Below are positions 2-24,076 of a stretch of DNA of 24,720 nt, in pieces. The DNA lies in assembly GCA_054600435.1 (NCBI GenBank), contig BAAIJX010000029.1, positions 248,001 through 272,720 of the forward strand, written 5' to 3'. Numbering within the stretch: position 1 is the stretch's first letter; each line of letters begins with the position of its first letter. The stretch comes from Neophaeotheca triangularis. Lineage: Eukaryota. A program made the position numbers and the translations under genes. The notes under the pieces are model-generated. The model ran no database searches and was not told the DNA's origin. It was given only the letters and a program-made list of their open reading frames with translations.

Positions 2-268
2 GAAACTCCTAGCCATTACGGAGGGAATCGCGGTTACGATGGTCATTATAATTGCTACAACTTCGGATCTATGGACGTCGATTCTCCCCCGCGGTCTCAT
101 GAGGGCGTGGGAGCTGCAAGGGTTTGGCATGAAGGCTTTACTTGCTATGGGGGGTTCTCCGGGCTAGGGGTTTCGAGGCCCAGTATTGGGGTTCTGAGAG
201 AGGGTCTTGGTAGATGGAAGGGGTTCTGGTTTGATAGGGATGGAGATTTGATCATGACTGGCGTGTGA
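2..268 (+). CDS. Possible 3' end of a gene entering from the left edge (hypothetical protein)
   Basis: Frame is open from position 2 to TGA at 266-268 (89 codons) and ends ...FDRDGDLIMTGV. No recognisable domain. Confidence 0.25.
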   Translation, partial: ETPSHYGGNRGYDGHYNCYNFGSMDVDSPPRSHEGVGAARVWHEGFTCYGGFSGLGVSRPSIGVLREGLGRWKGFWFDRDGDLIMTGV

Positions 269-683
269 ATGCGGATTTCCGTGTAGCTCAGGGGGGGCTG
301 CTGAATTAAGGGTCAGGCTGGGTAGGCTTCGCGATTGGGGTGGGGATCGGGGTTGGCGGTTAGCGGGTTCTTGGGAGCGAACGCTGGGGGTTCTGTGAGG
401 TTCCGGGAGCGTAAGAGAGCGGGATCTAGGGTTTTGGGTCGAGGACTGGAGTTTGTGGGAGGGCGTTGCCAGGCGTTGTGATTCCCCACAGCGAACCATG
501 GCCGCCAATCAACTACCTTTTCGCCACGCCTCCGATTCCCACAATGTGCGGTCTTGTATCTTCGAAGACGTTTCCGTCATCAGGGCGGTTCGTCCGCGTC
601 CGCGCGCTAGCGGGGCTCAGGGGGTAACAGATTTGCTTGCTGGAGACTGGAGCACGCTGGACGGGTGGGGCGGATGAGTGGGG

Positions 684-711
684 GTGAGTGAGTGAGTGAG
701 TGAGTGAGTGA
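684..711. repeat. (GTGA)7 microsatellite
   Basis: Seven perfect GTGA units read directly. Confidence 0.9.
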
Positions 712-1212
712 ATGAAATACTGAAAAGGGCAATTTCCCGGGCGCTGTAGAGCTTACTCGAGCGAGCAACGAAGAAGACGAGTCGAGCGGATCTCGATACC
801 AACACCCCAGCAAGAAAAGCTGGAAGTGCAAGGAAAAGCTAGAGAAGGAAAAAAGTTACAAAATTGGCTGTACACGCAACCCGTCAACTCATTCCTTCCT
901 TGCAAGCTATACTTTAACAGGAAAACCTCTATACCCATCCATTCATCACACCCTCCCCCCCACCCCCGGTCCACTGTATTTTACATACACAAGCCCTCGT
1001 CCGTTCCTTGCCGCGGTAGCAAGTAGAGTGGAAAAAATAAGGAGAAAAGCCCCGCTCCTCCATCCGTCGTGATCTCTGCGCGAGCAGGTCTCTGATTCGC
1101 TGCTCCGCGTCTAGAACCGTTTTCCTTCCTTGCCACCTTGCTTGATAGAATCTGCTGTGGGAGTAGGTCCCGTGGTCTAGGGGGTGCGCCGTGAACGCCT
1201 GGTGTACAATTG

Positions 1213-1229
1213 TTTTTTTTTTTTTTTTT
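1213..1229. repeat. T17 homopolymer (A17 on the hapC sense strand, downstream of its stop)
   Basis: Direct reading. Confidence 0.9.
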
Positions 1230-1694
1230 GATTTCTTTGGTCTTTTCTTTCTCGGCCTTTGACTGTCATCAATGCCTTTCGTCTCCGGGTATTCGTATTG
1301 GATAGTCATGTTGGGACAGAGGGATGGGTCGTGCAGTGTAGGTGTGGGGTATGTCGTGTCGCTGATGTTGATGGTAACGTTGCCAGGCGTGGTGATGCTC
1401 TGAGCTGGAAACATAGAATGGTAACATGTGTGCTGAGGTTATTTGGGCATCGATTAGCGTAGTCGAGTAATAGCTGCGTCGGGAATCACCAGCGCGGAAA
1501 GAGGGGTGATAAGTATGGTCCATTGGCGGTCTCGGACACTCGGACAGCGGTGAAGACGTGGCTGGGTTGTCTAGTTGACGTCGGACATGGAGAGGGAAAG
1601 GGCGTTCAATGGATTCGACAACGGTCTGGTTTGCTTCGGCCTGATCATCGTAGAGACGTCTAGTGCTCGTTCTGGGGTTGTTGGCGGATTCTTC

Positions 1695-3039
1695 CTAAAA
1701 CTCCCCCCCACCTCCTGGACCAACGGGGTAGCCGAATTCCGTGGTAGGTTCGCCTGACGGGTCCATGGGGTTGCCAAGCATGGGTTGACCGGCGGCATCG
1801 TAGCCTGGACTTACTTCTGCGCCGCTGCTGCCGGAAACGGTTTTTTGATTCTCGCCTCTAGCGACGAGGTTCTGCTCGGCCGTCTTGTCAGGTTGGCTCG
1901 TCCACGAGAGGGACGACATTCTTACCTCGCGGTATCTCGCTAGATAAATCTTCAAAGCCTCGCCGTAGTTCTCGAAACCAAGCGAAGTCATGGCAAAGAG
2001 AATGTCTTCACCATTGACAGTCTTGCGCTTCTCTTGCTGGCACTTCTCCGACGCTGTCGCACAAGTCAGTCGGGTTGCTCGACCAATCACCAGAACCGCG
2101 GGACTGGAAGTGGAACGTACCTTCACTCGTGATGAAGGAGATGAACTCGCTCACACATTCTTGCATGCATTCTTTGGCTTCCTTTGCAATCTTTGCATTC
2201 TCCGGGAGAGCCGTCTTCATGATTCGGGCGACTGGAGCGAAATTATGTATGTTAGCGTCTGAATCCAATCGAGCTTTTGCGCCTTTGGAGCGCGACGTCG
2301 AAGGCGTTTGCGAAGGGGACGAGGACGTTTGCGGGGAAGTGGAAGAGTTCATCGCCATTCGCCAGATTTCTCCCACGGTGGCGAGAAAGCTTGCAGATGG
2401 CTGGTGCTGGGGGGGTCAAAGTGGGAGAGGCAAGCTCTGATTCGACGGCTGCGACGTCGTTTGTGGTCGAGAGCGTTGTATGCGCGATGCAAAGCGTTAT
2501 ATGTCGGCGAGTAATAGAGTGCGCTGGTCTCACGACAGCCGTCGACGTGCAGCTGTCAAAAAACGATGCGCAAGCACGGCAGGACGGCAGGGGTTCGAAT
2601 GGTGGGAAGCAGTGGTTAAGAGGGCGAATCGATGCAAGGTCGCGCCCTGGCTGAGCAGACCCAATTGGGACAGATGGGGTGGTACAAGTAACGTTGGACT
2701 GGAACGGGGGAGGGCAGGTAGGGTGGTTTTTTGATGAAATCTCGACTTACCATTAGCTATGGGTAACCATCGATCTTGTTCCTTGACTTCGAAATCGTAG
2801 CCGATGCTGTGCTCGAGGGGATCGTCACGAAGGCGATTGACATTCATATCGGGGTCGGTTTGCTGGTCGGTGGTCGCTTGCCCATCGTTATCCAGCGGCG
2901 GCGGCGGCGGCGGCGAGTCGTCCTGATCCGCTGAAGCTGAAGCTGAAGCGTTGGTGGGCGGAAGAGGAGGAGGAGAGTTGCTGTTGCTGTTGTTGTCGAC
3001 AGGCTCGACCTGGTCGGTGCCTCGGGGGCTTTGTGACAT
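1695..3039 (-). CDS. hapC: CCAAT-binding complex subunit HapC/Hap3 (NF-YB), ~234 aa, 4 exons: 3039-2751, 2231-2121, 2053-1926, 1871-1695
   Basis: Spliced product has the NF-YB histone fold: [95 protein letters not shown] introns of 519, 67 and 54 nt have CTAAC/CTGAC branch sites. Exon lengths sum to 705 nt. Confidence 0.97.
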
Positions 3040-3605
3040 ATTGTATGCGGCGGCCTGCAGATGCGGTGAAGGGGTTAGGTAAGGGTCGGGTATGCGATAC
3101 GATACGATGCCGTCAGAGCTTTGCGCTGGCAGCCCTGCCCAAGACGATTATTGGATTCGCGGGCGCAGACACGTCACTGGACAGCGAGCGCGGGCGACGG
3201 GTGACGGGCGCGCGCAGAGAGCAGAGACAGGGGGGACGGGGGTGGAGAAGGGTCTGGGCGGCGGTGAAGAACACCAAAAAGGTCCAAAAACAAAGAAAAA
3301 GGGGGGCCGAGAGCGAGTAAGAATGGGTTGTGCCTTGCTGGCGCTTTAGTTAGTACTGCTGTCGAATGCAGGTGTTGGGGTTGGGCAGGCAGACTAAAGT
3401 GTCGACGGATGTGTAAGGGTAAGGTAAGGTGGGTGGGTGGTAAGGTGCAGGTGGTGTTGTGTAACGGACGCGGCGGGGCGGGCGACGTGACGGGATGGCC
3501 GGGCTGGTCAACACGCTAGTCCGTAAATGGTATCGTCAATATCAGTCGGATTATTATTATTGATCGAGCGACTTTCTTTGGGCAGCGGTGTAATGATAAA
3601 ATTCG

Positions 3606-3635: not shown

Positions 3636-5841
3636 ACCCTCGCCTAGGTTTACTACTAGTAGCTTCCACTATTGCTGTCTCGTTTACTATAAGTGACGGT
3701 GACCATCATTTCACTACCGGTTGTCAGCGCGGATATGGAACTCCCCAAGGTTAAGTTACTGTACCAATCCTCTCACATAAATACTACTAGTAATATATTC
3801 ACGGTTAGAGTCGAACTACCTTCTTCTTCAACATGAAGTCTACCTCTCTCTACACCTCTCTCTATCTCTCTCCCCATGTTGCTACTCCCACCGCTCCGCA
3901 TCGCCACCAAAAGATACAGCGGTGAGCGTGACCCAGCCACTATCGTCAAGCTAAACCCGGCACCACCACCACTACTACTACTACCACTGCTTCAGTGCTT
4001 CCTTTGTGTTGACCGTCGGCGGCGGCCCTGCCAAGAGAAATGGGAAGTACTGTACCTGGCTGGCTACCTAGCTGCGAACACCACTAGCACTAATAGCCGC
4101 GATGCGACATCGTCAAGCAACACGCATTAAGGCCCAATGACGACCCGGCGAACAGCTGCAGCGCGGCACACTTCCTCCAACTATTCCCAACGCATCTCCA
4201 ATTCCGCATGACGGCGTGATCGTCTCGTTCGGCGTAGAATGACGTCCTGGCTTGGGCAGCAAAAGCGCGCAAGGATAGCAAGCAAAGAATGTCTCGATTC
4301 ATAGGTTGGTGCGAGAAAAGAAAGAAAGAAAGGGCTCGGTCTTGAGTGGACAGAGTTGCTGCAATTGTTCAAATCTAGGCCAACTGCTTTACAGTTCCTG
4401 CGTCCTCTTCCCCTCGGTCACACTATTATTGCAGCTATGCAGCGACCTCCCATGGTTCACGCCTCGGTTGGCCAATCAGCTGCGCTAGACGACCGTCCCT
4501 TGCTTTCTTCTGGCGCTGCAACTCGTTGAGATGACTTCTGACGAACATGCCTTTGAACACTGGCAATCAAGGACTGTTGTTGATCAGAACGACCGACTCG
4601 TCTCCGGTCGCGTGTTTTCCAGGCAGCAAGCTCACACCCTCTTCGTCTACGGAGGCATTTCCCACGTCAGTCAGCAAGCGCGCCAACGCGCAGCCTGATC
4701 GCGAAGCGCCACCACAACCCGCACCCTGCGCATCTTCCTCAACCCAACTGCGGACCTGCGCATCTCCACCAGTTCTCATACCACCACTATTTCCCGGGCA
4801 AGCCTCCCATCAGCTTTCCCCTTCGCATGCATCTCTTGATCCCCTCGGTACCCAACCATACCCCACCCCTCTCGCCTTGCTTCGGCCCTACAACTCGGGC
4901 TGTTGTGTACATGTAGTTGGACGTCGGTACCGGTACTGTGGCTGCGGCTGGCCGACTTGCATCTATCAGCCGGGAGAGGGGCTCAATCGGATGAGTCGCT
5001 TTCCTCTGGTTCTCGCGGTACTACGATGGAATGGGGGATGGAACGGGAAATGGAGCGAAGACGGAGATCGAAGCAGGGAACAGAGTGAAGTAGGCCCAGG
5101 TACTGTTCGTGGTGATGAGGCTGGCCAGCGAGTCCTCCGTTGCATTACGAAAGTCTTATTGTCGCAGAGTACAGCCGGTCCTTGGTGGCTTTCATGAGGC
5201 TGGAGATGGGTAAGAAAGAGTTACAGAAGCGCAATGTCATGTCATGCAATGCAATGCTCGCGCTGTTGGTGCCGCAAATACAAGCAGCACGAGCATAAAG
5301 TTCACGTGTGCACCGATTCAGCGACATATGCAGGTCGGCCTCACATAAAAGGCGTGTCAGGTGACAAAACCCTCGCTCGCTTACTTACCTATAAGCTGCA
5401 GTGGCATTTTGGGCAAGCGCTTGCTTACTTTGTATGCAGTGACATTCGCTCGAGTGAGCTGGTGTACATTATAGCTGCTACGGTGGTGGGTAAGGCAGTG
5501 GTAAGTGAGCTCTTGATCATGGGCTCGCCGTTCTCTCGTTGGCAGTCTAGCTAGGGATACGGTACTAGTCGCAAACTGCACGCATCACCCTGTCTAGAAG
5601 TCGAACCCGCTGTGTGCTCTGGAAGTTGGCTCGCTTGTGCCGCAAACGTTGTTCCGCCGTTCAATAGGTTCAACGTGCTAGACTCCCCGCCCACTGGGAA
5701 TTTTGGGTCCGGCCAGCACCTGAATGCCTGGTGACGACCTCGTGAGTCTCCAGCTCGGGTCTCTTTTGTCACGAGACTCTGTTGACGCTCGTCCACCTTG
5801 ACGCTGACCCCAACCGCTCCGCTCCTGCTTCTAGAGGGTTC

Positions 5842-6709
5842 CTACTGCTGCACTACTTGGATCTTGTTCTTTTTCTGTAGTAGCCGAGACGTCAGTAGTC
5901 GTTCATGCCAGGTGTTCCCCAGCGGAGGGAGTTGCAAACACCTCCCCTTCCATCTCCTTTCACGTCTTCCGCCCACCTTGCTTGCCTGCGGAGAACTACC
6001 ACCACCACCACTAAGCCCCACCACAGGGCGCATTTGAATTAAAGAATGGAGAGAACAAAATAGAGAACATACCTTCCACCCCTCCATCTCCGCCTGCTTC
6101 CCCCGATACTGCTTCACCAAGTCCTCAAGCACCTTTTTCAAACCCTCGGCGTTCGTTTGCAGAGCTGGCAGGACGTCGCCGACGGTTCGCTCCACTAGCA
6201 CGCCGTTGATCATGCGGAAGCATTTGCGGTCGCTTGGGAGGGGGGTTAGGGTTTCTAGAACGAGTCTTGCAGGGGTGTTAGTTTTTGTGGGTTCGAAGAA
6301 TGGGATACGTGTTGGGGTGTGATGTTCATGAGGGAAGGTTGGAGAGTGCGTTTCTTTGAGATCAGAGCGGGGGAGGGTGTTGGCATTGAGTCCATGGGGT
6401 CTGGGTGGTGGCGTTGAAGGGTGCAAGGAAGCCGGTAAAGGGGTTGGTTGGTTCCTTCCAGGAGCATCACTCCAGCCGGGATGGACTGTGGTAATTCGGA
6501 TCGTTTTCGGAAAAGAGTCGTGGTACTCACTTGTGTTCTTCGCTTTCTTGCTCGACATCGCCAATCTTTTGCGCTACAGCTTGAAGAGTTTCCTTGTAGT
6601 TGGAGTATTGGACTTGCAACTCTGTTACGAACAATTAGCGTGGCTCGAGTTACAGGGATGATTCGTGCTTACCCTGCTGCTTCTTTGCGGATATTTGTTG
6701 TTGTGACAT
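5842..6709 (-). CDS. GIM4: Prefoldin subunit 2 (Gim4/PFD2), ~117 aa, 4 exons: 6709-6673, 6621-6531, 6265-6073, 5874-5842
   Basis: Spliced product MSQQQISAKKQQ|ELQVQYSNYKETLQAVAQKIGDVEQESEEHK|LVLETLTPLPSDRKCFRMINGVLVERTVGDVLPALQTNAEGLKKVLEDLVKQYRGKQAEMEGWK|KKNKIQVVQQ. RKCFRMINGVLVERTV is the prefoldin beta subunit 2 hallmark. Introns are 51, 265 and 198 nt; exons sum to 354 nt. Confidence 0.95.
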
Positions 6710-7938
6710 GATCTTGTTGTCTTTAAGATATCGTGCCTGATTGCAAGCGATACCTTGGGCCAGAGCGCACGGATAGAGGAAGCTGGGCTTGCCCGGAGCG
6801 AGCACCGGACAGCGTCACTTCGGTTTAGTCAGCAGGCCCGCGCACGGTCCCAGTGAAAATTGCCTATATCAATTTCGCTCCCCTCGCAACTCTCCTTCCT
6901 CCTCATTATGTCGACTTGTGAGTTCCACCAGGACCCCCCAAAAAAACCCATTGTGTCAACCATTGTCTAACACCCTTCACAGTACTTCATAGAATCATTT
7001 CTATAGTAAACGTCCACGACTGTGTTTCTCACAGAAGCCACAGTACTCCAACCTGGCTGATGAGGAGGACACCCGAGACCCTAGAGTGATGCCGTGGTGC
7101 TGGACTCCTTTTTGGGGCTCCAGTGGCAATGATCTCGTCCCTGTCGAGCGTCTGGCTTCGGCCGGCTTGGTTGGGTGGGCCTTGTGGTGATTCTGACAGG
7201 TTTCCGATCTTTTTGCTTTCATACTTGAAGAGCTTGGCTTTGTTGTCGAGTGCTTTGGTGAGAAGGCTTGGAGAGGTCAAGAGGGCCTCTAAGAGATGAT
7301 GGACTGTCGTAAGCGCACCAGAGACACCCTCACTGGTGTGAGACTTTTGGTGCTGGTACTGGTCCTGGCCCTGATGTCCCGACCCGATTTGCGGAAATTT
7401 CCAGTACGACCTCGCTTGCCGCGCTCGCTTGCCTACGCCGAACGAACTTCATCCTCGTACCCCGGTCTCAAGCGAAAGCGAGCACCTATTATTCCCGCCT
7501 CCATCAGGGTTTCGGAGATCTCTACGACCTACAGATTCCCCTCGCCTGCGCATCATCTAATACAGCTGACCAACAGCCGCCCTTTCGCCAGCCACTTCTT
7601 TCCTCCATCTAGCTACATCATTGCCATCGACCGGCCTAGCATGTCATCACGACATCGTTGCTGCGCGACGCCCACTGCTGAACGGTGCAAGCCGGTGTTC
7701 CGCAGCGAGCTATATGAAAGGGAGACGATACCTAGGTAGCACGTACTTTGGGACAAGAGTAAAAGGCCAGCATGGACGTGAACATGGCACGAAGAAAACT
7801 TCGGGCCTGCTTCGGCCGAGAGCAAAAGAAGATGGATACATGCGTGTGATCATGTTTTCGAAATACGTCAATACCCGATAGCCCGGCAGGCAGCACGCTG
7901 CGCACACGACAACGCCAATAGAGTCCCAAATTCATTGC

Positions 7939-8143
7939 CCCCATCCTGAACCTCTTGAAATCCATCTTTACCTCTCTCTCTACTCCTAGAAGTTTTTCCT
8001 CCTTTTAACTTTACTGCCCCCTTTACTTCTTTGTTCACTATTTTCTTTATACCTTTACTACCCCCTTTACTATTCCTCCTTTTAACTTTACTGCCTCTTT
8101 CACTTCCTTATCCACTGTTTCATTTACTTTATTCCTTTACTAA
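7939..8143. repeat. Pyrimidine-rich dispersed repeat, copy A, with an internal 77-bp-period tandem duplication
   Basis: Aligns by eye to 19519-19651. The identical 23-mer TTCCTCCTTTTAACTTTACTGCC occurs at 7996-8018 and 8073-8095. Confidence 0.85.
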
Positions 8144-9511
8144 TACGATGAACGGGTGAGGTTTCGACGCTTTACCGCGGCGGACGTCACTCTGTGAGAC
8201 GGGGCGCGAGGGCCGGTGAAGATGAAAGCGTAGTAGACGGTCTTAATCACGACCACAGCGACGATAGCTTAGAGCCCACCGATACCTATGCAGCTCTCAG
8301 TAAAACCGTTGAGACGCGGCGCGATGTTAGAATTGCAAGGCAACGATTGAACGAATGCATACCTGCGCGCTCTCCCAAACCTCGAGCCAAGGAACTACAT
8401 TCTGCAATGTCATCCTGCGCATGTCATAGACCCGCCAGGTAGAGGTCTTGCCAAGGTCTACACAGTGCTAGAGATGGCCTCTGGCCTCGAGTCTTCTTTC
8501 CTTCCGCGTCACTTCCACAAGTCGACACATGCGTACCGCACGGCTTTCCGGAAATGCTACCTAATGTTCTACGTATCGGCGGGGCGTCATCGTTACGGCC
8601 AAGAAGGTGAACTTGGCAGCCTACCGGTTGCTGTCCTTGCGTTAGTAGAATGCCTCATGTGTCTGTGGATTTGACACAAGAATCAGTCTTCTTCACGGTG
8701 CCCCGGCCGCCTCGTTGTAGCAGCCAAAATGCCTATTTTCAGATGCCAACTATTGCGCCCAAACTCGAAGTCCTCGGCGCTCAGCAGTATTGCACTCACT
8801 CTAGACGATACCAAATCGTCGCGGACAATCTTCATCAGTTTCATCCTAGTCGTTTTAACATCGCGAAATCTTGCCGTGCCAAAACTTGCTATATTACGCC
8901 AAGGCCAATGGTCTTGGAGAAGACCGGAACCACGTGGAGCAACGTTCAGCCCTAACCGTATAACGTTCAACTCCACCCGAGGTTGCTCGAGGACATGCCT
9001 ATTACCTCCTAGCCTGGCGGGTCTGGCCAGACGGGACTGCAGTGGTGTCGCAATAATTATACGGGCTTGGAAGTACTACGAGACCGATGATGGCCAATGA
9101 AACATCCGCCGGGAGCGTTGTATAGACGTTGCGTCTGCAGTTGTTATTCTCCGACAACACATAGCCGTCCAGTGCCATGCCCGTGGACTTCAACGGCTAT
9201 CTTCGAAGATTGAATAATCTGTACTATTTGGTCATACCGCTATATTACGTACCGCAGCTACCGGTATGTGCCCCTCTCGAGCCGCTCCACCTCAAGGTCG
9301 CCCTGGGTGATTAACGTGAGGCTACGGCAGCTCGACGGATCCTTGTGCTTGGCCTGGACACATTTCACCCTCCAACACCGGCCGCGAACATCTGCATCTC
9401 GTTGAACGCACCACGACGGAGCTGAGGGTCGATAGTCGATCCCGGTGAAGACGACGCTATAGCGATCATTGCAGATAGCGTCTCGCCCCCTGTACTTGGA
9501 GAACTTTCATC

Positions 9512-9517: not shown

Positions 9518-9611
9518 AGGAGTGGCTGTCGCCATCGCCGTCCCCGGGCGACTGTACTAATACATTCTTTACATCCCATTGAAACAAGACTCTGGCAAAA
9601 TCCCCATCACA

Positions 9612-10537
9612 ATGTACATTGAGACCTTGCTTATCGGTGGAGCGCTGCTCTCGCAGTACGCTTCAGCTTGCCCTCAACATAACAACCACAGAGTCTCAGG
9701 GATCTTGAACAAGCGCCAGCAGATTGGCGAGACATACTACCAGCAACCAACTGGGCAAAAGTGGCAATACGACGCCATTTGCGATTGGGCCAGCCTCGAC
9801 CCTGGTAGGCACATTACAGCTCGAAAGCCTCGACGCCTGTTCAACAACTAACAATCCAACCATCAGATTATGAGATGTGCCAAATGGGAACCCACCAGTC
9901 ACCAATTCCTTTGACAAATGAGCAAGGCCTCGCTCACAGCCATCTCCCAACTTTCAATTACCACAACAACGTCACGGGGAATTTTGATAACTGGGGCTAT
10001 GGTCCTCGCTTCACCCTCGAGCACCCGGATGGAGAGTACACTGGTCTCCCATCTTTCACCTTCACCGAAGGCATCAACGACACCGGCGACAACGAGACTG
10101 TCTACCTCGTCGGTTGGCACATTCACAGTCCCTCCGAACACACAATTAACGGCGAGCACGCTCGGAGTGAAATGCACTTGGTTCACGTCGACAAGCAGGG
10201 CCACGAACGTGCCGTCGTCGCCATCATAATCGACGCTTCCAACGACCCGTCACCTTTCCTAGAAGCACTGCCACCAATGTTCGGCTCCAACGAAACTGGC
10301 CACCAAATGCCGACGGCTATGAATATGAAGTTGCCAATTCAAGAGGTGAACAACCTGGCTGAGTTCTGGACCTACAAGGGCAGTCTGACTACCCCTCCCT
10401 GCCACGAGGGGTTGAGGTGGTTCGTCGGCAGGCAGAGGCTTTATATGAGCACGGAACAGATGCAAGACCTCCTTCACATTAGCAGATACTCTGCGAGACC
10501 TACTTCGCGCGTCTGGCAGCATGAAGTCAACGCTTGA
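9612..10537 (+). CDS. Secreted alpha-class carbonic anhydrase, ~287 aa, exons 9612-9804 and 9867-10537
   Basis: Signal-peptide-like N-terminus (MYIETLLIGGALLSQYASA). Alpha-CA motifs QSPI, WHIHSPSEH, EMHLVH (three Zn-binding His) and YKGSLTTPPCHEG. A 62-nt GT-AG intron with ACTAAC branch restores the frame. Confidence 0.93.
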
Positions 10538-10678: not shown

Positions 10679-13600
10679 CTAGCCGTCATACTCCAGCGTC
10701 AAACTCGTAGGGATTGGACTTTCCTTCGCATCCTGATCGAGATAATGCCTCATCTTAATCCCAGCCAGATCGTGCTCAACCGTCGTGAACTTCCCCCGGG
10801 GCCCAGGGGCTCTCCGCACATTCTTCAACTTGAACACTTCCCGCAGCGTAGCGGCCAAAGAACACCCGACCAGTCTCGCGCCAAAGCAAAAATGCAGCCC
10901 ATGCCCTAGTAAAATGTAACCTTGCATCGGCCTGTTGGGATCAATCTTCTCCGGATTGGGGAAAGCAACCGGGTCCATGGCAGCTCGCGACGTCGCGATC
11001 AAGACCGTCTGCTGCGCTCTAATTTTCACCGGCCCTCGCGCCCCGTCTTGCAGGGTGACGTCCGACGCGGCGACTCGTGGCAGCCCCGGGACCACACCCG
11101 CATGCCGCATCCCCTCGTACACAAAACCCTGCAGTTCGCGCTCGGCGGCTTCGTCATTGCGATGAGCCAGTTCCACGATGCGCGCCTTGTAGCTCTCATA
11201 CTCCGGGCTGAGATACAAATCCACGAGCAGCGAAGCCTGCTGGGTCAAGTTGCCGGCCACGGGCGCCGCCATGCCGATGCAATCTCCCACCATGTCGCCA
11301 ATCTCCAGTCCGGTGTCCAGCAGGCCCTTGTAGATGCGGTCGGCGTCGGGTTTAACTTGGTAAGCGCTGCCTTTAGCTAGCCAGTCGACAATGGCTTCTT
11401 GGAAACCTTGCTGGGTTTTGAGGTGGGCTTCGTGGATGGAGCGCAGCAAGGGAGCGACTTTCTCCGCGCCCTCGCGCAGTTTCCATTCGTTACTCGGCAT
11501 GATGTTGAAGGATTGGTACATGAAGAGGACGAGGTAGAGTTTGAAGAGTTGTGGGATGGACACTAGACCGCGCGGGTTTTCCATTGTTTTAAGCGGTATG
11601 GCGAACCGCTCGGCGAGCCAGAGGATCGGGACTACGTTCGTGACGTCTCTCACTATGTCGATGGATTTGCGCGGGCTGTTGGGGTAGCTGAGGGATTTCT
11701 GCTTGATCAGGTCGGCTATGTTGAGGGTGAAGAATTTCGAGACGTTCCCCTCGAAGCCTTCCTCGAAGAAGATCTTGTGCAGGGTGCTGGAGCGAGGATC
11801 ATGGCGTTTGGCGTCGTCCCAGCCTATCATGAAGTCGTGACCGTCGGTGCAGTTGCGGATGGCGTGCTGGTACATGGTCCGGAAGGTCTCGCGGTCTTCG
11901 AAGACTGCTTTGCACCCTTCCTGCGTGTGGATGCCGATGATATCCTGGTCGCTGCGAGGACGCTCGAGGTCATATTTCTCGATGGCTTTGTTGCCTTTGA
12001 CAATCTCCTTGGCTGCTTGTGGGGTGTAAAATGGCAAGAGTGCGTAGATTGAAGTGCCGGAGAAGCCACCGGGCATGGCGTTGAAGATGAGTTCCGGCAG
12101 CTTTCCTCCGTAGGCGCCGGGGACGGATTCGCCTATCTTCGAGACTCCCCAGTTGGTGAGCGTAGAACTGTTGAAATCATGGCTCAGGAAACGGTCGCCG
12201 CGGACGAGAGAAACTGCGTCGTCTAAGATACCCCTTCCGGTGGTTTGGCCGGGACATACACCGCTTCCTGGCATTGGAGGTTTAGTGACTTCGGCCATCA
12301 GGCCGGGGTAGAGCTCTAGGTTGTCGATGTGTCCATACAAGAGTTCAGCCGCTCGTGCAGTCTCTTCATCAGGGTTCCATTCCTCGAAGCTTTTGTACGT
12401 TTGGAGATTGAGGTATCGGCGGAATCTAAAATCGAGTCAGCGTTTCGTCGCTAAATTTTGAAGCGTGGAAAGCTCACTCGTTCATCGTGCAGACATTGAA
12501 ATGATTCCGGGCCTGCAGCTGGCCCATAAGATCTACGATTTTCAAACTGGCAGGTGTCCCATGCGCCCCAAAAGCGTGCGCGGGCTCTTCGATGCAGTCT
12601 TTGATCACTTCGGCGAGATCATAATCACTGAATCTGCCGTCCGGCCCCCTCTTCAGATTACCAAAAGTCCACTCTTTGGCTGGGGTGGCGTCGAGTTTGG
12701 CCTTCTGCTTTCCAACAACTTGCATAAAATCTTGCACCGTCACGTCGTCGATGGACCCGAGGTCTGGCCTACTGTCGCGGATGATGCTTTCCATCCAATG
12801 ATCGTCTGCGGCGGACAAGGCAGCATGCCAGTGGTACAAGACGGCGAACTCAACGGAGACCACGTTGCCTGTGCCGCGCTCGATGCGCTTGCCCGAGTCT
12901 TTGATTTCCGCGCCGAGGTCCAGCCACCATTCCGAATCTGCTCGGGGGGTGTTGAGGATGGCTGCTACGTAGTCCTTTAGCACTACGGTGGCGAAGAAGC
13001 CAACGTTGATGTTGCGGGTAATTTGGAAGATGTCTTCGTCTTGTCTGCTCACAATGTCAGCTTCGACTACCCAGAGAATTCAGGCTTGCTGACTTACTTT
13101 GCCTTCTTTTCCTCATTGAGCGCATCCCAGTCCCCATATTTCCCCTCCTCATTCACCGCAAGCAACGACTCGGCAATGTGGTTGTGATTCCTCGAGAACA
13201 GCAACAAGCAGGCGACAACTCCGGGTGGCATCATGATTATCCTGTCCGAAGCAATCGAGTCTGGCCAGATCCTGCCATTCTCGTACTTCCTCACCCGCTT
13301 CTGTTCCTCCGCATTGTTGCCATACAGCGTGCTAAGGTCGACATAACTCGAGGTCTCATTGATCCAGTGTTTCGAGCGATTAGTTTGGAAGCACTCATGA
13401 ATGACAACTGTTGCAAAGGAAAAGAACAACCGATTTAGACCAGAAGGATGTGGTCGGAAAGGGCCCTTGCGTTTGAGAAGATGCTCAAAAACAAGCTCTG
13501 GATCTGGAAGGTTTGGTCCTTTGGCCTTTTTGGGTGCTACATTGCGGGCATATGGCGTGCCTGCTTTGCCCATTTCTGGGTTCCAGAGGTTGTTATTGCT

Positions 13601-13957
13601 GCCATCGGCCGTCCTATACCTGGTTTCGGGGCCAGCGAGCGTGGCGGGTGGATGAGGTAAGTCGTGCCAGAGCATGCCGATGAATTTCCCCGATACCGTC
13701 GACTCGAGGCCGCTATTGGATGGCAAGCCTTGTAGCATTGAGACGGCATTCTCAAGGAGCAGCTCTTTGTCGTCCAGTGGATCGCCCGAAGCCAGAGTTG
13801 TAATGGCATCCTTGACCGTTCCTAGGTCCTCGAAGTCTAGGTTGGCGAGATCATGAATGGCGGAAGTCTCTTCGTCTAGAGGATTGGGGGTCGCCTGTCT
13901 TCCGTTCTTGGTGGGCTTTCGAGTAATGGCGGAGATAAGATCTTTGAGCTGACCCAT
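10679..13957 (-). CDS. ppo: Fatty-acid dioxygenase-cytochrome P450 fusion (Ppo/linoleate diol synthase family), ~1057 aa, exons 13957-13098, 13044-12478, 12425-10679
   Basis: Heme-peroxidase-type DOX motifs YRTADGSNNN, VIHECFQT, SSYVDLSTLYG, EFAVLYHWH, LYGHIDNLELYPG and LVRGDRF. C-terminal P450 has EGMR (ExxR) and GHGLHFCFG. Introns of 53 and 52 nt with GCTGAC branches; exons sum to 3174 nt. Confidence 0.95.
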
Positions 13958-15354
13958 TTTGAAATACCAGCGTGATTATTGGTGTTTCTCCGTTCGTCAG
14001 TCGTCAGCTTTTCGAAGGCTCAAGGAACCTTGGACCTGACAGAGTGTCGCGAGCTTGGAAGAAAAGAGGCAAAAGAAGCAGAAAATTCGTAGACTGACTT
14101 ACTTGATTTATCTTTCTAGGAGATGTCAACGCTCACAGGAACCAGTCAATTCGTCGATCATTGTTATCGCTGGGACTGCTCATGCCCACACTTGAACCTC
14201 ACTCGGCCCTCAGCAAGTTTGATGATTCTTTGATTGGGTCGCTTGCGTTACCAGGACACAGGAGTTCCAACGCATGGATCTGCAGCTATGCCCGCGTCGC
14301 ACACGTCTACTCGCGCCCGAGAGAGACATTGCTGCTGTGCTTTACCGAAACGAGGCACTGCAGGGTTACTCAATGTGGTTCCTCGTGACCACCTCATTCC
14401 CCGTTTAGGACAATCGGAGATTTCATTCTTTCTTATTCGAACGTGCTCGAAAAGCTTGTCGTCATAAGATCTCGAGTTTGGTATTTTTGGAGCCAAGAAG
14501 ATGAAGGCTCAAGCCAATCACTTGTGCAGCCGCAGCTTTCTATGAACTGCAAATGCAGTAGCTCCCTCAACCTCGCAACGTCTGTCGTGGGCCCATCTCG
14601 TGCTGACGGAATTCGCCGCAAGAAGAGGGGTTTGCGTGTCAACGTTGCAAGATTTCGTCTTTAGCTCCTGTCGTGCTCTGGGTAGTGAAACTGATTTAAC
14701 GTATTCAGGTTCGACCTGATATGGGTTAGACTTGGAGAAGTCTTTAAAGTGTCATGGGATGTTGTTCGATTGCCTTGTTGTCGGGGCATTGTTGAGAAAG
14801 TGAGGAGAGAACAAAGTTTCTTGTTAGCACGCGCCGATCCTCTACCGTGCCGCCGTAACGTTACCGCGATTGATCGACGACTGGGATTGACTCGGCCCCG
14901 GTTCGGTTTCGATTGACAAACAGCCTTGGGACCCTAACCAAGTCGTCCAGCGAGAAGACGACACCGAAGCTATGGCATCGGACCCGATTCCACAGACTAT
15001 TGACCGTTGAGCGACGGTCGACTTGAAGGAATAATAATAACTATATCATGACCTGAGAACACGCGCGTGGGGAATACTTCCCGCAAACAGCCAATGCATG
15101 ATGTTTTGCCTGACAGAAGACCAAAGGGTTCCTGGCTGTGTTACTCCCAGAGACTAATTTCAGCTATCTACTGCAGACTGGAAGATAGCTAGAGAAGGAA
15201 CAAAACTCTCGATCAACATTGGAACTCTAGCCATTCCAGCTGCACCTCCTCCCGTTCCTCGTTCGCCTCGGCCTTTTGCCTCCGTAAGACGCACCCTGCC
15301 ACGGTATCGCCTTGTTTCGCAGCCGCAAATTCATCTCGTGCGCAAGATCCAACG

Positions 15355-16908
15355 ATGGATACGGCCACGACTACTGCTTTGCCATGGACGCCGCACCGCT
15401 ATCCTACTCAGCGTGGTCCTTGGAGTGAAAAGATAAACTTGAGCGAGGGAGCCGGTCTTGAAACGATGCAGTCCCCCGACAAGCCAATCCCAGCTGTTAT
15501 TCATGCTGTAAATAACTCTACTCAGTTCAGTCGTCCTGGTCGTTCCCTTGTCATCTGCTTGGACGGTACCGGTGATAAATTCGACATGGACAACAGCAAT
15601 ATCGTCAAGTTGGTCTCCTGTCTGAAGAAAGACGATCCCTCTCAGGTAACCTACTACCAGACGGGAATAGGGACCTACGACGGCTCTGGATTGAAGACTG
15701 GGTTCTCCGCCGCCATCGACATGGCCGTGGGAAGTGGCCTTGGTACTCACATTAGAGACGCCTACCAATTTCTGATGCAAAACTACAAACAGGGTGATCG
15801 CATCTGCTTGTTCGGTTTCAGCAGAGGCTCCTACACTGCTCGTTGCCTGGCCGGGATGCTGCACAAAGTTGGTCTGCTCCCCGCTCACAACGTTGCTCAG
15901 ATCCCTTTTGCCTACGAATTTTACAAAGATTCGAGCGAGCATGGATGGGACATGAGCAGGAAATTCAAGAAGACCTTTTGCATTGATGTAAGCGTGTATT
16001 TTGTCGGGGTCTGGGACTGCGTCGCTAGTGTTGGTTTCATTCCACGGAAACTGCCTTTCGGCTCGACGAGGCATAACAAGATCCGGCACTTCAGACATGC
16101 GATGGCGTTGGATGAACACAGAGCCAAGTTCAAGGTGTGCCATTGGGTGAAGCCCTCGTATCTTGCCGAAAAGTCAAAGGGTGGCGAAGCCGGGGTCATG
16201 AAGCCTACGAAGCCTGATGAAGAAGAAAGAGTTGAAGAGACGGATATCAAGGAGGTCTGGTTTGCGGGAGCGCATGCTGATTGCGGAGGAGGCGCTGTCC
16301 ACAACGACGAGAGGCACATGCTGTCTCGAATACCATTGCGGTGGATGCTGCGCCAGTGTTTCGAGTGTGATACGGGCATTCTCTTCCAGACTGCTCGTCT
16401 TGCGGAATTTGGCCTAGACGTACCTACTCTCTTTCCAAATTACCAGCGTCTACCGAAGCCCAACGTGGGTCCGTCACCCGCCATGCTTGAATCAAAGGAC
16501 CTTGGCACTCTGCCACCCCTATCGACTCGATCAGAAAGCTTCAACATCGTACCTGTTGGCCAGCATGGCGAATTCGCACCTCAAGCACACAACAAGCGCT
16601 CACCACAGCGACCGAATCCTGTACCAGAGCAAGTAGAGGACTTCTTCGACGCCCAGGCACCGATAAACGACCAACTTGTTCTTGCAAAAGCCTGGTGGAT
16701 ATTGGAATTTTGGCCCGTCAAAGTCCCATTCCAGCACGCGGAAACCGAAGAGTGGCAGAAGAACCTCCGCATGAACCTGGGATTGCATCGAGCTGTCAGA
16801 GATGTTGAGCCGATGATGCACTGGACTGTGCAAAAGGGTGTCGAGGAGAAGCGGTATCAGGTGCAAGCAAGAGTAGGGAAGAATGCCTTTTGGAGGAGTA
16901 CTACCTGA
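15355..16908 (+). CDS. DUF2235 / Tle1-like alpha/beta-hydrolase (putative phospholipase), 517 aa, intronless
   Basis: Family motifs LVICLDGT, SNIVKL, YYQTGIGT, LFGFSRGSYTAR (GxSxG nucleophile), GVWDCVASVG, HAMALDEHR and EVWFAGAHADCGGG. The true start could be a downstream Met. Confidence 0.93.
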   Translation: MDTATTTALPWTPHRYPTQRGPWSEKINLSEGAGLETMQSPDKPIPAVIHAVNNSTQFSRPGRSLVICLDGTGDKFDMDNSNIVKLVSCLKKDDPSQVTYYQTGIGTYDGSGLKTGFSAAIDMAVGSGLGTHIRDAYQFLMQNYKQGDRICLFGFSRGSYTARCLAGMLHKVGLLPAHNVAQIPFAYEFYKDSSEHGWDMSRKFKKTFCIDVSVYFVGVWDCVASVGFIPRKLPFGSTRHNKIRHFRHAMALDEHRAKFKVCHWVKPSYLAEKSKGGEAGVMKPTKPDEEERVEETDIKEVWFAGAHADCGGGAVHNDERHMLSRIPLRWMLRQCFECDTGILFQTARLAEFGLDVPTLFPNYQRLPKPNVGPSPAMLESKDLGTLPPLSTRSESFNIVPVGQHGEFAPQAHNKRSPQRPNPVPEQVEDFFDAQAPINDQLVLAKAWWILEFWPVKVPFQHAETEEWQKNLRMNLGLHRAVRDVEPMMHWTVQKGVEEKRYQVQARVGKNAFWRSTT

Positions 16909-17418: not shown

Positions 17419-19364
17419 ATGTACCTTTTATCCATGATACTGGGCCTCTGCGGCGCCGCAATTGGATCCCCAGTCTCTGACAATGTATACGACTTTGCAA
17501 GTACCTCGACAAAAACCATCAGGCTCGACATGGATTGCTGACTTCCCGCGTAGATTGTAGTGGGAGGAGGCACAGCGGGCCTTACCGTGGCCACCCGCTT
17601 GAGCCAAAATCTACCAGACTTCTCAGTGCTCGTAATCGAGGCTGGTCCAGATGGTCGAGATGAGCCAGACATTTACATACCAGGGCGCAGGTCGTCTACT
17701 TTCAACTCGAGGTACGACTGGAACTTCACGTCAACACTACAGCCCTACGCCAACGATCGCGAGTGGGCGCAGAATCGCGGGCATGTTTTGGGAGGGAGTT
17801 CGGCAATCAACCTGCTTGGATACGACAGGGCTGCAAAAGCAGACTTCGACGCCTTCCAAGAGATGGGCAACCCTGGATGGAATTGGTCGACGATGCATTC
17901 TGCAATGGAAGCCGTCGAACACTTCCAGCAAACACCTGCAGAGGGTTCCGCCGGCCTACGAGGCGTAGGCGAAGACGGACCTATCAACTTCTTGGTCAAT
18001 CGCCATTTGCCGCCGCAAAACGAAGCCTACTTTCCTGCCATGGAGAACCTTGGCTTGAATCAATCGTTGGGCTTCCTCGATGGAGATATGTTGGGTTATA
18101 CCCACCACACGAGCAACATCCTCAGAAGCAATTACACTAGGTCCTACAGTACTGCGTTCCTGGCGACTGCACCGCAGAATCTTCACTGGATGGTTGACAC
18201 CATGGTAGCCAAGGTCAACATGGATCAGTTCGGTTGTGCTACTGGTGTAACACTTAAAGACGGCACTGTCCTCAGTGCCGCAAAGGAGGTCATCCTTTCC
18301 GCTGGCACGCTTCAATCACCCCAGCTACTAGAGCTGTCAGGGATAGGCAATGCAACCCTCCTAACTGCTGCCGGCATCGATACGATCATAGATATGCCAT
18401 CCGTGGGCGAGCATCTTGTAAGTCATTACTTGCTAGCGCTTGTTGAGACAGTCAAGCCTTTGGGTCCTGGTGATCATCTTCTTGATAAGAACTGTAGCTG
18501 ACCCCAATGCAGCAAGATCACGTACAAATCTCAACAAACTATCAACTGAAATCAAGCTACATCGGCTACGACGAACTGATGACCAACAGCACTCTCGCAG
18601 CTCAACAACGGGCTCTCTACAACGCCAGCGAGCCCAGTCTGTACGACGCAACCAGCGTCGCCGTCTCCTTCCTGACTTGGGAAATGGCCCTAGGCAACGC
18701 CTCAACCGACCTCATAGCCCTAGCCGAGCTCCAGACAGCCTCGACTCAGAACCTTATTGACCAGGAAAAGCTGCGCAAACTCCACGACCCCACGGCACGA
18801 GTGCCACAACTCGAAGTCCTCCTCTCCAACGGCTACAGCGGATCCAAGGGCTACCCCGACGCCAACTCCCCCCTCTACGGCGAGTCCTTCATCCAGCTGC
18901 TCGCGAGCATCAACCACCCCTTCGCCCGTGGAAGCTCGCACATCAACGTCTCAGACCCGCAAGGCCATCCCGTCTTCGACCCTAGGTATCTCAGCAACGA
19001 CTACGACCTCAACGCCACAGCCGAAGCGGCCAAGTATCTGCGCAAAGTGGCCCAAACGCCGCCGTTCAACCATGTCTGGGTGGACGAGTACGAGCCAGGT
19101 TTCGACGCCGTCTCGACGGATGACGAGTGGGTCGAGTATGTCAAAGCGAGTGCTGGGTCTGTGTGGCATCCGGTGGGAACTTGTGCTATGCTGCCCAAAG
19201 AAGAGGGCGGTGTCGTTAGTCCGGAGTTGAAGGTTTATGGGACGAAGAATTTGAGGGTGGTGGATGCAAGTATCATGCCGATCATGATTTCTGGCCATAT
19301 TCAAACGGCAGTTTACGGTGTCGCTGAGATGGCTGCAAGGATCATCACGGAGAAGTGGTGTTAA
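17419..19364 (+). CDS. Secreted GMC oxidoreductase (CAZy AA3_2-like), ~597 aa, exons 17419-17496, 17554-18417, 18513-19364
   Basis: Signal peptide MYLLSMILGLCGAAIG; FAD motif YDF|IVVGGGTAG; RGHVLGGSSAIN; EVILSAGTLQSPQLLELSGIG; VGEHL|QDH; catalytic His pair WHPVGT and SGHIQT; LRVVDASIMP. Introns are 57 nt (GC-AG) and 95 nt (GT-AG). Confidence 0.94.
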
Positions 19365-20705: not shown

Positions 20706-22390
20706 ATGAAGTATCTTGCCACCACCCTCGCCGCCTCTGGCCTTGTCGTTGCCCAAGACCCTTACGCCATCTACCAGCAATGCGGCGGTACCAACTTTGA
20801 GAACCCCGGCCCATGCGAGGCGGGACTCAAGTGCGTCGTGCAGAACCCATTCTACCATCAGTGCCGACCGAAGGAGTACGATGAGGGCTCCAAAGATGTT
20901 GTGACCTCCGAGGCTCTTCAAGCAGACATCACCCTCGATAGCCTCCTCGCCTCCGCCGCACGCTTGCAGGAGATCGCTGACGCCAACGGTGGCAACCGCG
21001 TATTCGGTAGCGGCGGGTCCAACGCCACCATCGACTGGCTCGAGGCAGAGTTGAACGCCCTCGGTACTTACGACGTCTACCGCCAGCCATTCGTCGAGCT
21101 CTTCTCTGGTGGCTTTGCGACCTTTTCCGCCGGCGGCTCCGAGTACGACGTTGCTCTCATGACTTACGCACCCAACGGCGAGGCCAGCGCTGCCTTGATT
21201 CCCGTCGACAATCTCGGTTGTGAGCTGTCCGACTACCCATCCGAGGTTGCCGATTCCATTGCCCTCATCTCTCGTGGCGAGTGTTCTTTCGCCATCAAGG
21301 CCGAAAACGCCCTGAGTGCCGGTGCTGCCGGTGCCATTATCTACAACAACGTCCCCGGTGCGCTTAGCGGAACTCTCGGTGGCGCTGGCGATTACGCCCC
21401 GGTTGTTGGCACTTCCCAAGAGGTTGGCAACGCACTCCTTGCGGCGGTTGAAGAAGCTGGCACACTCGAGGGCGACCTCGTTGTCAACACCATTCTCGAG
21501 AACCGTACCACGTTCAACGTCATTGCTGAGACGAGGGGTGGTGACAAGAGCAACGTGCTGGTTTTGGGTGGACACTCCGACTCGGTCGAAGCTGGGCCAG
21601 GTATCAACGACGATGGCAGCGGTATTGTCGGCTGTCTGGAAGTTGCCAAGGCTCTCTCCCAATACGATGTGAACAATGCTGTGAGGTTCGGATTCTGGTC
21701 GGCTGAGGAGTTTGGCCTTCTTGGGTCCTACGCCTATCTCCGCTCCATTAATGATAGCGTCGCAGAGGTCAACAAGCTCCGCGCCTACCTCAACTTTGAC
21801 ATGATGTTTGTTTTCCCCTTCCTCTGCCTTCGAAAATTCCCCAGCTAATTCTTAACTCCCCCAGCGCTTCCCCCAACTACATCCTCGGCGTCTACGACGG
21901 TGACGGCAGTGCTTTCGGTCTCACGGGTCCTCCTGGCTCTGGCGAGATCGAAGCAACCTTCCAAGATTTCTTTACCTCCCAAGGCGAAGCATTCCGCGAA
22001 ACCGAGTTCTCCGGCCGCTCCGACTACGCCGCCTTCCTTGAGAACGGCGTTCCTTCTGGCGGTCTCTTCACCGGCGCTGAGCAGCTCAAGACGGAAGCCG
22101 AGGTAGCCCTCTTCGGCGGTGAAGCGGGCGTCGCATACGACGTAAACTACCACCGAGTCGGCGACACCTACGACAACCTCAACCACGACGCTTTCCTCAT
22201 CAACTCCAAAGCCATCGCCGATGCCGTCGCCAAGTATGCTCAAAGCTTCGAGTCCCTGCCCGCCATGTCCTCCGTCCTACGTAGGGATTTGGCTGCGCGT
22301 GAGCGTTTGAGGGCCAAGTACCCCAGGGATGAGCACTCGCACGCTCATGGGATCCATGCCCCATGTGGCCAGGCTTCTTTGACGGAGTAG
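20706..22390 (+). CDS. Secreted M28 aminopeptidase (aminopeptidase Y/Lap2-like) with N-terminal CBM1 and a PA domain, ~541 aa, exons 20706-21805 and 21865-22390
   Basis: Signal peptide [19 protein letters not shown]1 pattern [20 protein letters not shown] domain [32 protein letters not shown]28 ligand motifs [39 protein letters not shown]. The 59-nt intron has a GCTAAT branch. Exon 2 is absent from the ORF track. Confidence 0.94.
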
Positions 22391-23438: not shown

Positions 23439-23975
23439 TCACTTCGTCAACGGCGTGGCATAGAAGAGAGACGCAGCTTGGAGCGCAGCATCGATCTTCC
23501 CCGTCGCCACGAGAGCCTGCGGCGCCTGATCGAGACTCAATTTTGCGCCGACTGCAGCACTAAACGTCTCGTGGTCATACTTGAGCAAGTTGATGCTCGA
23601 AAATACCAGACTGGACAGCTCGGCCTCGTCGAAGAGATCCTTCTTCCCCTTCAACACCTCCAAGCCAGCTGGGATGGAAACACCGACGGTATCTTGAACA
23701 TTCTGCACGATGCGCTTGGATTCTTCGCTGGTGAAGCGCTTGGAGGCTTTTGCGTCGGCGAAACCCTGTCGGTTGATGTCGTGGATGTCGATGGCGGCGG
23801 TGAAGACGGGCTTTGATTGTAGGATGCCGCCGTTGTAGGCTTCGGTCTGGGCTGTGAGTGCTCGGACGGCAGTGTCGATGCCGGTGATGTCGTTGAAGAC
23901 TTGCTCTGCAGTGCGCTTTGTGATTGCTGCACAAAGCGCAAGAGGAGTGATGGCGAGGATAGCGAAGGCTTTCAT
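23439..23975 (-). CDS. hsbA: HsbA / cell-wall mannoprotein Mp1-like secreted protein, 178 aa
   Basis: Signal peptide plus a KR site (MKAFAILAITPLALCAAITKR), then an amphipathic helical HsbA-like pattern (VFNDITGIDTAVRALTAQTEAYNGG...KKDLF...KIDAALQAASLFY). Size is typical of the family. Recognised from memory, not by search. Confidence 0.8.
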   Translation of the reverse strand: MKAFAILAITPLALCAAITKRTAEQVFNDITGIDTAVRALTAQTEAYNGGILQSKPVFTAAIDIHDINRQGFADAKASKRFTSEESKRIVQNVQDTVGVSIPAGLEVLKGKKDLFDEAELSSLVFSSINLLKYDHETFSAAVGAKLSLDQAPQALVATGKIDAALQAASLFYATPLTK

Positions 23976-24076
23976 TCTGGCGGTGTGGGTTGGTCTTCTT
24001 TTTTCGTTTACTCTCAATGGGACGTTGTTACCGTTGCGTTGTCACGAATCTTAGAGGGTTGACAAGGGCGGCTACC

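Follow-up and report, generated by a model that had tools for sequence, protein, structure and literature searches.

Introduction

Fungal oxylipins have been linked to differentiation, to quorum sensing and to interaction with the host, and the dioxygenase (DOX) enzymes treated in the same source act on free fatty acids, those of the 9-DOX type also on amino-acid conjugates (PMC13049297). In the open-access literature searched, with subscription journals and most supplements outside that scope, no enzyme is named that supplies fatty acids to the dioxygenase–cytochrome P450 fusions (DOX-CYP), no function is assigned to a fungal DUF2235 protein, and no report was found of a dedicated lipase partner of DOX-CYP enzymes or of a DOX–DUF2235 pairing. 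Here we describe a stretch of 24,720 nucleotides from Neophaeotheca triangularis (GenBank assembly GCA_054600435.1, contig BAAIJX010000029.1, positions 248,001 to 272,720 of the forward strand; the window, with positions counted from its first letter), in which a DOX-CYP gene lies head to head with a gene for a DUF2235/Tle1-like hydrolase. The pair is real, conserved over a wide range of fungi and apparently not reported before, and we read it as a two-gene oxylipin module whose partner gene has been exchanged.

The pair provides a specific, cheaply tested candidate both for fatty-acid release in oxylipin synthesis and for the function of a fungal DUF2235. In addition, it draws attention to a widespread, highly conserved DOX-CYP clade whose mix of motifs agrees with neither of its two nearest characterised subfamilies. 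The pair is both relevant and tractable, since powdery mildews and an industrial yeast have retained it.

The gene pair and its conservation

The divergent arrangement given in an earlier note on this DNA, with a ppo-like gene on the minus strand and a DUF2235 gene on the plus strand parted by 1397 bp (13958-15354), was confirmed in gene structures and coordinates. The DOX-CYP gene has three exons and encodes 1057 residues (ATG at 13957, stop codon at 10681-10679); both introns are GT-AG, and an alternative acceptor for intron 1, an AG three bases earlier, would shorten it to 50 bp, the 53-bp junction being the one that aligns with homologues. The pair is composed as follows.

13098..13957, minus strand: DOX-CYP exon 1 (start codon at 13957; N-terminal region with distal His187)
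13045..13097, minus strand: DOX-CYP intron 1 (GTAAGT...CAG, 53 bp)
12478..13044, minus strand: DOX-CYP exon 2 (central Tyr312, catalytic Tyr357, proximal His360)
12426..12477, minus strand: DOX-CYP intron 2 (GTGAGC...TAG, 52 bp)
10679..12425, minus strand: DOX-CYP exon 3 (end of the dioxygenase domain with Lys524 and Arg540; P450 domain with Asn868, ExxR at 913-916 and Cys989; stop codon)
13958..15354, no strand: shared divergent intergenic region (1397 bp from ATG to ATG; candidate bidirectional promoter)
15355..16908, plus strand: DUF2235/Tle1-like alpha/beta-hydrolase gene, type A (single exon, 517 residues; D70 of the DG motif, S156, D221, H307)

Homologues of each protein were searched, the best 120 being shown of 2272 and of 223, and their locus tags and accessions were compared. 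Among the matches listed, 18 assemblies were matched between the type-A hydrolase and DOX lists; the two genes are consecutive in 17 of them and two apart in the remaining one, Lachnellula suecica, on a 25-kb contig. Consecutive locus tags were found in Scytalidium (g1610/g1611), Dothideomycetes NU459, Trypethelium, Oleoguttula, Drepanopeziza, Golovinomyces and Blastobotrys (ARAD1D50578/50600, a numbering step that we take to denote consecutive genes). Consecutive accessions, looked up in assemblies pre-selected for having both proteins apparently on the same contig, were found in Xylogone, Phlyctema, Patellaria, Delphinella, Podosphaera, Leptodontidium, Rhexocercosporidium, Acephala, Phialocephala and Blumeria. 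Cluster members add four further consecutive pairs, and Elasticomyces, Aureobasidium, Hortaea, Pseudogymnoascus and Diplocarpon were left unscored because the two lists hold different isolates. Adjacency of the two genes is far above chance. The earlier note would have abandoned its proposal had the arrangement been confined to close relatives; the pair in fact turned up in Leotiomycetes and Dothideomycetes, at Chaetothyriales-like loci and in a yeast, and again with a second DUF2235 paralogue, so that the functional two-gene unit it proposed is now well supported.

A similar picture emerges from metagenome contigs. They were scanned using 33 aligned DOX homologues; 102 loci were confirmed, of which the best 80 were kept (the 80 loci referred to throughout). 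Among the 33 informative loci, defined by at least 3.5 kb of sequence upstream of DOX, a DUF2235 gene lies upstream in 22, one of them broken (L070), as it does in two shorter loci; in all 24 DUF2235-bearing loci it stands upstream of DOX on the opposite strand, and 1.2-3.0 kb separates the matches of the two genes at the linked loci measured outside the window. After dereplication on DOX DNA, DUF2235 is present in 18 of 28 clusters when the cut is set at 95% identity, and in 15 of 22 when it is set at 80%.

Individual loci show further arrangements. At L070 the type-A DUF2235 upstream of DOX is a broken 5' fragment (7912-8487, minus strand), which suggests loss in progress, at L078 a second DOX-CYP of the same clade stands head to head with the first in the usual DUF2235 position (506-1822, minus strand), and at L051 a haem-thiolate peroxidase (Peroxidase_2; 5020-5751, minus strand) diverges from DOX in place of DUF2235. 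Locus L092 is probably contamination: its contig, of fungal type and bearing DOX with a type-A DUF2235 that diverges from it, lies inside a metagenome-assembled genome (MAG) titled Deltaproteobacteria. A bacterial member of the pair was considered and rejected, the single GTDB match being a fungal-type contig in a bacterial MAG.

Two paralogous hydrolase partners

The seat facing this DOX clade is held by two DUF2235 paralogues. A type-B DUF2235, with 33-39% identity to type A, takes this seat in Pleosporineae and Pseudovirgaria; type B is widespread (885 matches), counts among its members proteins whose annotation likens them to yeast YEL023C, and appears in intron-rich form at loci whose DOX is 87-98% like that of Alternaria, Parastagonospora, Plenodomus or Boeremia. 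It is consecutive with DOX in Coniothyrium, Plenodomus lindquistii, Pleosporales CAS-2024a, Boeremia, Cucurbitaria, Alternaria triticimaculans and Pseudovirgaria, three tags from DOX in Plenodomus biglobosus, and on a different contig from DOX in 11 other named Dothideomycete assemblies. Patellaria possesses both types, A adjoining DOX and B on another contig; none of the 80 loci carries both, and no type B was found in the window genome with two queries. Two paralogues in one seat imply at least one partner exchange, or else reciprocal loss from a three-gene block, and since type B faces the same DOX clade, the partnership follows the enzyme family and not one inherited block.

Phylogenetic trees separate type A from type B with strong support. 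The linked type-B proteins form a weak clade (support 70) in one hydrolase tree and not in two others, and in the DOX tree the B-linked Pleosporineae enzymes fall among Pleosporales enzymes that include the A-linked locus L039, with Pseudovirgaria apart; comparison of flanks did not tell which gene moved in Pleosporineae. A single clade of all linked DUF2235 proteins was rejected by the approximately unbiased test when outgroups were included (p-AU 4.9e-5) and not rejected when they were left out (p-AU 0.64).

In a FastTree tree of the DOX enzymes, those of yeasts, of Metarhizium/Beauveria and of Orbiliomycetes nest within groups foreign to them, smut and chytrid members being basal, which suggests horizontal transfer within the clade. 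In Blastobotrys the pair stays together in a lineage placed inside a foreign group. The positions of individual members from yeasts, smuts, a chytrid, Hypocreales and Orbiliomycetes (P0134, P0157, P0160, P0223, P0239, P0161, P0222, P0232 and P0236) likewise suggest such transfer.

The DUF2235 hydrolase

The 517-residue hydrolase matches PF09994 in Pfam with E 2e-86. It carries the motifs LDGTG, GFSRG (S156), WDCV (D221) and GAHAD (H307), the last three being those from which the earlier note read an intact triad; S156, D221 and H307, which from work on Tle1 we take to be the Ser-Asp-His triad, each occur without variation in 74 of 74 type-A rows, and type B retains the motifs as well. The DG and GxHxD motifs are given in PMC3482391. 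A hydropathy scan, in itself a weak test, agrees with the earlier statement that neither protein of the pair has an obvious signal peptide (best nine-residue N-terminal windows 1.06 and 0.59).

A structure model of the hydrolase (pLDDT 75; predicted template modelling score, pTM, 0.82) finds its closest fold in Tle1 (6sjl; Z 15.4, root-mean-square deviation 4.0, 249 residues aligned), followed by phospholipase TleB (9j3f, Z 14.5), the uncharacterised Legionella protein lpg2422 (Z 14.5) and 4o5p (Z 13.8). The next fold below this group has Z 11.2, with thioesterases and esterases further down the same lists, and a Foldseek search of the model also finds a Tle1-like fold (E 7e-7). Structural alignments with bacterial Tle1/TleB give 18-24% identity; a sequence search against the PDB returned no match at E<=0.1, whereas the fold search did match.

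Some DUF2235 proteins elsewhere show unusual architectures: the Tulasnella protein P0047 apparently has two tandem DUF2235 domains, and the type-B models P0305 and P0352 are fused to an SDR or PP2C domain, which may reflect annotation merges.

The DOX-CYP enzyme

The fusion is evident from Pfam, which finds An_peroxidase (PF03098) in the N-terminal and p450 (PF00067) in the C-terminal part of the exons, both above cut-offs; the best PDB matches of the DOX domain are the cyclooxygenases (COX) COX-1 and COX-2, with homology to COX at E 6.5e-30. All of 120 homologues keep H187, Y312, Y357, H360, K524, E913 and R916, as well as Arg540 in the terminal motif GSGVCPGQTTGRGIL (CPGQTTGRGIL), while the haem-thiolate ligand C989 is kept in 111 and Asn868, at substrate recognition site 4 (SRS4, reading NLTQ), in 108. 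The clade spreads over ascomycete moulds, yeasts, smuts and a chytrid, with basidiomycete members including P0160 and P0223; the window enzyme has 58-75% identity to named clade members and 32% to the canonical Ppo of the same genome (contig C21).

Comparison with Tables 2-3 of PMC13049297 provides a motif classification. The central motif VLxxYVxxIL (V308-L317) and YxW (Y357-H-W359) are those of the 8R type, but the terminal Ser (CPxxxxSxxI) and the SRS4 NQxQ of 8R-DOX fused to linoleate diol synthase (8R-DOX-LDS) are replaced by CPGQTTGRGIL and NLTQ. Of the marks of 9-DOX fused to allene oxide synthase (9-DOX-AOS), the Arg in the terminal motif is present (R540), but in place of YxF, Thr/Val at SRS4 and RxxxF/V at SRS2 the enzyme has YHW, N868 and YLVLF. 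By its motifs it is thus a mosaic of an 8R-type central motif and YxW, a 9-DOX Arg, and an Asn at SRS4 resembling that of LDS or epoxy alcohol synthase (EAS), so that names given in databases, 'linoleate diol synthase' for one, are labels obtained by transfer, and the product is not predictable. The designation 'ppo-like' accordingly holds at family level; beyond it, given the 32% identity to the canonical Ppo and the fit to neither motif set, it does not.

The genome also encodes, besides the canonical Ppo (C21; L006), a P450-less alpha-dioxygenase-like peroxidase (contig C26; L005, L007). On a single contig, at locus L021, a deep-branching, intron-free member of the DOX clade (78-3380, 61% GC) is followed by a P450-like open reading frame on the same plus strand (3979-5763).

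The shared intergenic region

The region between the two start codons contains three matches to a candidate cis-element, GATCG[AG]C, chosen post hoc.

14153..14159, minus strand: GATCG[AG]C motif match
14833..14839, minus strand: GATCG[AG]C motif match
14872..14878, plus strand: GATCG[AG]C motif match

These three sites compare with 0.36 expected at the genome rate (P about 0.006). An exact k-mer search over 18 intergenic regions gave marginal single words only (GATCGAC in 15 of 18, where shuffled sequences reach maxima of 11-13), and the degenerate form, defined after that search, occurs in 18 of 18 regions at 1.23/kb versus 0.20/kb in flanks. It is similar to GATCGA, the motif of the White Collar Complex (PMC7493669). 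Given the post hoc choice, the relatedness of some loci and the coding DNA in the flank control, the element is a lead only.

Genomic context

The genome measures 25.4 Mb and has at least three DUF2235 and at least three An_peroxidase genes, the other two of each lying on different contigs. The pair is flanked in the window by the following genes.

About 1695-3147, minus strand: NF-YB/HAP3-like gene (window annotation)
About 5842-6573, minus strand: prefoldin subunit (window annotation)
About 9600-10537, plus strand: alpha-carbonic anhydrase gene, convergent, ending 141 bp from the DOX stop codon
About 17420-19364, plus strand: GMC oxidoreductase (window annotation)
About 20706-22390, plus strand: peptidase with CBM1, PA and M28 domains (window annotation)
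About 23439-24041, minus strand: HsbA (window annotation)

The carbonic anhydrase, M28 peptidase, HsbA, prefoldin and HAP3 neighbours recur at none of the 80 loci, and the GMC neighbour at one, as a distant match of about 27% identity. When flanks were compared with one another, genes were held in common almost solely between close relatives, with two weak cross-lineage matches (about 40%). The pair has therefore been kept while the surrounding synteny decayed, and neither the neighbour controls in the 80 loci nor the flank comparison revealed a third conserved module gene.

Proposed mechanism and alternative explanations

A functional link of some kind between the two genes is very probable, and it is likely, at a somewhat lower level of assurance, that DOX-CYP and hydrolase share a metabolite. 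As to its form, we lean slightly towards a selected head-to-head oxylipin module in which the hydrolase frees the fatty acid for the DOX-CYP. An intracellular DUF2235 serine hydrolase would cleave esterified unsaturated C18 fatty acids off membrane or storage lipid, the tyrosyl-radical haem domain of DOX-CYP would oxygenate the freed acid, and the P450 domain would rearrange the hydroperoxide, Asn at SRS4 suggesting a diol or epoxy-alcohol product; the common upstream region would allow joint induction of both genes. The lipase activity, its substrate, the order of reactions, the product, the co-induction and the biological role, as signal or defence, are what we infer here.

Several points weigh against this reading. 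Adjacency is dispensable, since DUF2235 is missing upstream of DOX in 11 of the 33 informative loci and the L070 copy is a relic; the genes standing there in these negatives (10 of 11 scanned, L058 being a near-copy of L061) are MnmE, a transporter with a glycosyltransferase, HET, a major facilitator superfamily transporter, a haem-thiolate peroxidase or a distant patatin-TPR gene, or else no gene is recognised. A lipase may not have to act first, because the invariant Arg540 resembles the 9-DOX Arg tied to carboxylate-out binding, which tolerates conjugated acyl chains, and the fold match of the hydrolase model names a family, not a substrate. Upstream regions of unlinked DOX genes also carry GATCG[AG]C (6 of 10; 0.56/kb), so the element may serve the DOX gene alone, and it was picked from the same data in which it was counted, against a flank control that includes coding DNA and with some loci related. 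Finally, a single B-linked DOX group is not rejected (p-AU 0.27), and two separate type-B recruitments are not demonstrated.

The alternative that survives best, which we regard as unlikely yet worth serious attention, reverses the order: DOX-CYP would oxygenate esterified or conjugated acyl chains, and DUF2235 would then release, transfer or detoxify the oxidised acyl group. All the linkage data fit this order equally, the invariant Arg540 allows it, and thioesterase and esterase folds match the hydrolase model too. It sits less easily with the ranking of those folds, in which the Tle1/TleB phospholipases lead with Z 13.8-15.4 versus at most 11.2 for other hydrolases, and with the central motif and YxW of the DOX domain, which are of the 8R type, associated with carboxylate-in binding in PMC13049297.

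Co-regulation in which no metabolite is shared, one promoter answering the same cue (light, wounding or sporulation) for enzymes that work on separate lipid pools, is distinctly improbable. The resemblance of the shared candidate element to the White Collar Complex motif (PMC7493669) would suit it, as would the other partners found facing DOX, the haem-thiolate peroxidase of L051 and the second DOX-CYP of L078; it leaves unexplained why, of all co-regulated genes, it was another DUF2235 paralogue that took the seat. In the nine supplementary files of a Blumeria conidiation study (PMC5492466), the tables of differentially expressed genes contain neither accession of the pair, and a different, canonical PpoA is present; this speaks neither for nor against co-expression of the pair.

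Neutral inheritance of an old accident, carried by descent and horizontal transfer with A and B derived from an ancestral A-B-DOX block through reciprocal losses, could draw on the third of informative loci that have no partner and on a DOX tree that departs from the species tree and suggests transfers by which a block could spread, but it is largely refuted and retains very little probability, because other neighbours were not kept, orientation is constant in 24 of 24 loci, none of the 80 loci has both A and B, B lies apart from DOX in the 11 named Dothideomycete assemblies, and a chance head-to-head landing beside a DUF2235 gene would occur at about 2e-4 per move (assuming 3-5 copies and about 10,000 genes).

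Building on the favoured module, in which release precedes oxygenation, a broader proposal is conceivable, although as a whole we consider it doubtful. DUF2235 proteins would be dedicated, repeatedly recruited lipid-release partners of COX-family dioxygenases, two fungal paralogues having been recruited to this DOX-CYP clade; the pair would move between lineages as a unit, make an undescribed oxylipin and perhaps be light-induced via GATCG[AG]C. If true, this would supply the phospholipase step so far missing from fungal oxylipin signalling and point to a housekeeping signalling branch of the Tle1 toxin family.

Comparison with known systems

Among characterised fungal enzymes, 8R-DOX-LDS (PpoA, 7,8-LDS) and 10R-DOX-EAS share with the window DOX-CYP the two-domain layout, the distal His, central Tyr, YxW with proximal His and conserved Lys, together with VLxxYVxxIL, Asn at SRS4, ExxR and the Cys ligand. 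It differs from 8R-DOX in the Arg that replaces Ser in the terminal motif GSGVCPGQTTGRGIL and in an SRS4 of NLTQ instead of NQxQ. With the 9R/9S-DOX-AOS enzymes (PpoD type) it shares the terminal-motif Arg (R540), whereas it differs from them in having YxW instead of YxF, Asn instead of Thr/Val at SRS4, and no RxxxF/V at SRS2.

The hydrolase, for its part, shares with bacterial Tle1/TleB (PF09994; 6sjl, 4o5p, 9j3f) the Pfam domain, the alpha/beta-hydrolase fold and the DG, GxSxG, D and GxHxD elements; it differs in being fungal, in showing no secretion signal in the hydropathy scan and in having an oxygenase partner. None of the VgrG/immunity context of a Tle1 effector of the type VI secretion system is present among the annotated neighbours in the fungal window; the hydrolase belongs to DUF2235 but is no such effector.

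Among COX-family fatty-acid dioxygenases with a partner enzyme, the Nostoc 10S-DOX acts with a catalase-related hydroperoxide lyase, there a separate, catalase-like second enzyme. None of three cyanobacterial plasmid-borne COX-like loci has an annotated DUF2235 within 6 kb. On a Calothrix plasmid (L093:5839-13356) a GMC oxidoreductase and a patatin-like phospholipase, of a lipase family other than DUF2235, lie within about 5 kb downstream of a COX-like peroxidase.

As a genomic arrangement, the pair has the layout that a co-regulated divergent gene pair would have, with its genes head to head over a short region (24 of 24 loci; 1.2-3.0 kb). The proposed logic of release followed by oxygenation is that of animal cytosolic phospholipase A2 (cPLA2) with cyclooxygenase and of plant lipase with lipoxygenase and AOS, and the DOX domain is homologous to COX. 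The window pair differs from these systems in its hydrolase family, unrelated to theirs (cPLA2 being patatin-like), in the clustering of its genes and in the fusion of the second-step P450. By analogy, it most likely works like phospholipase A2 with cyclooxygenase while standing outside that system.

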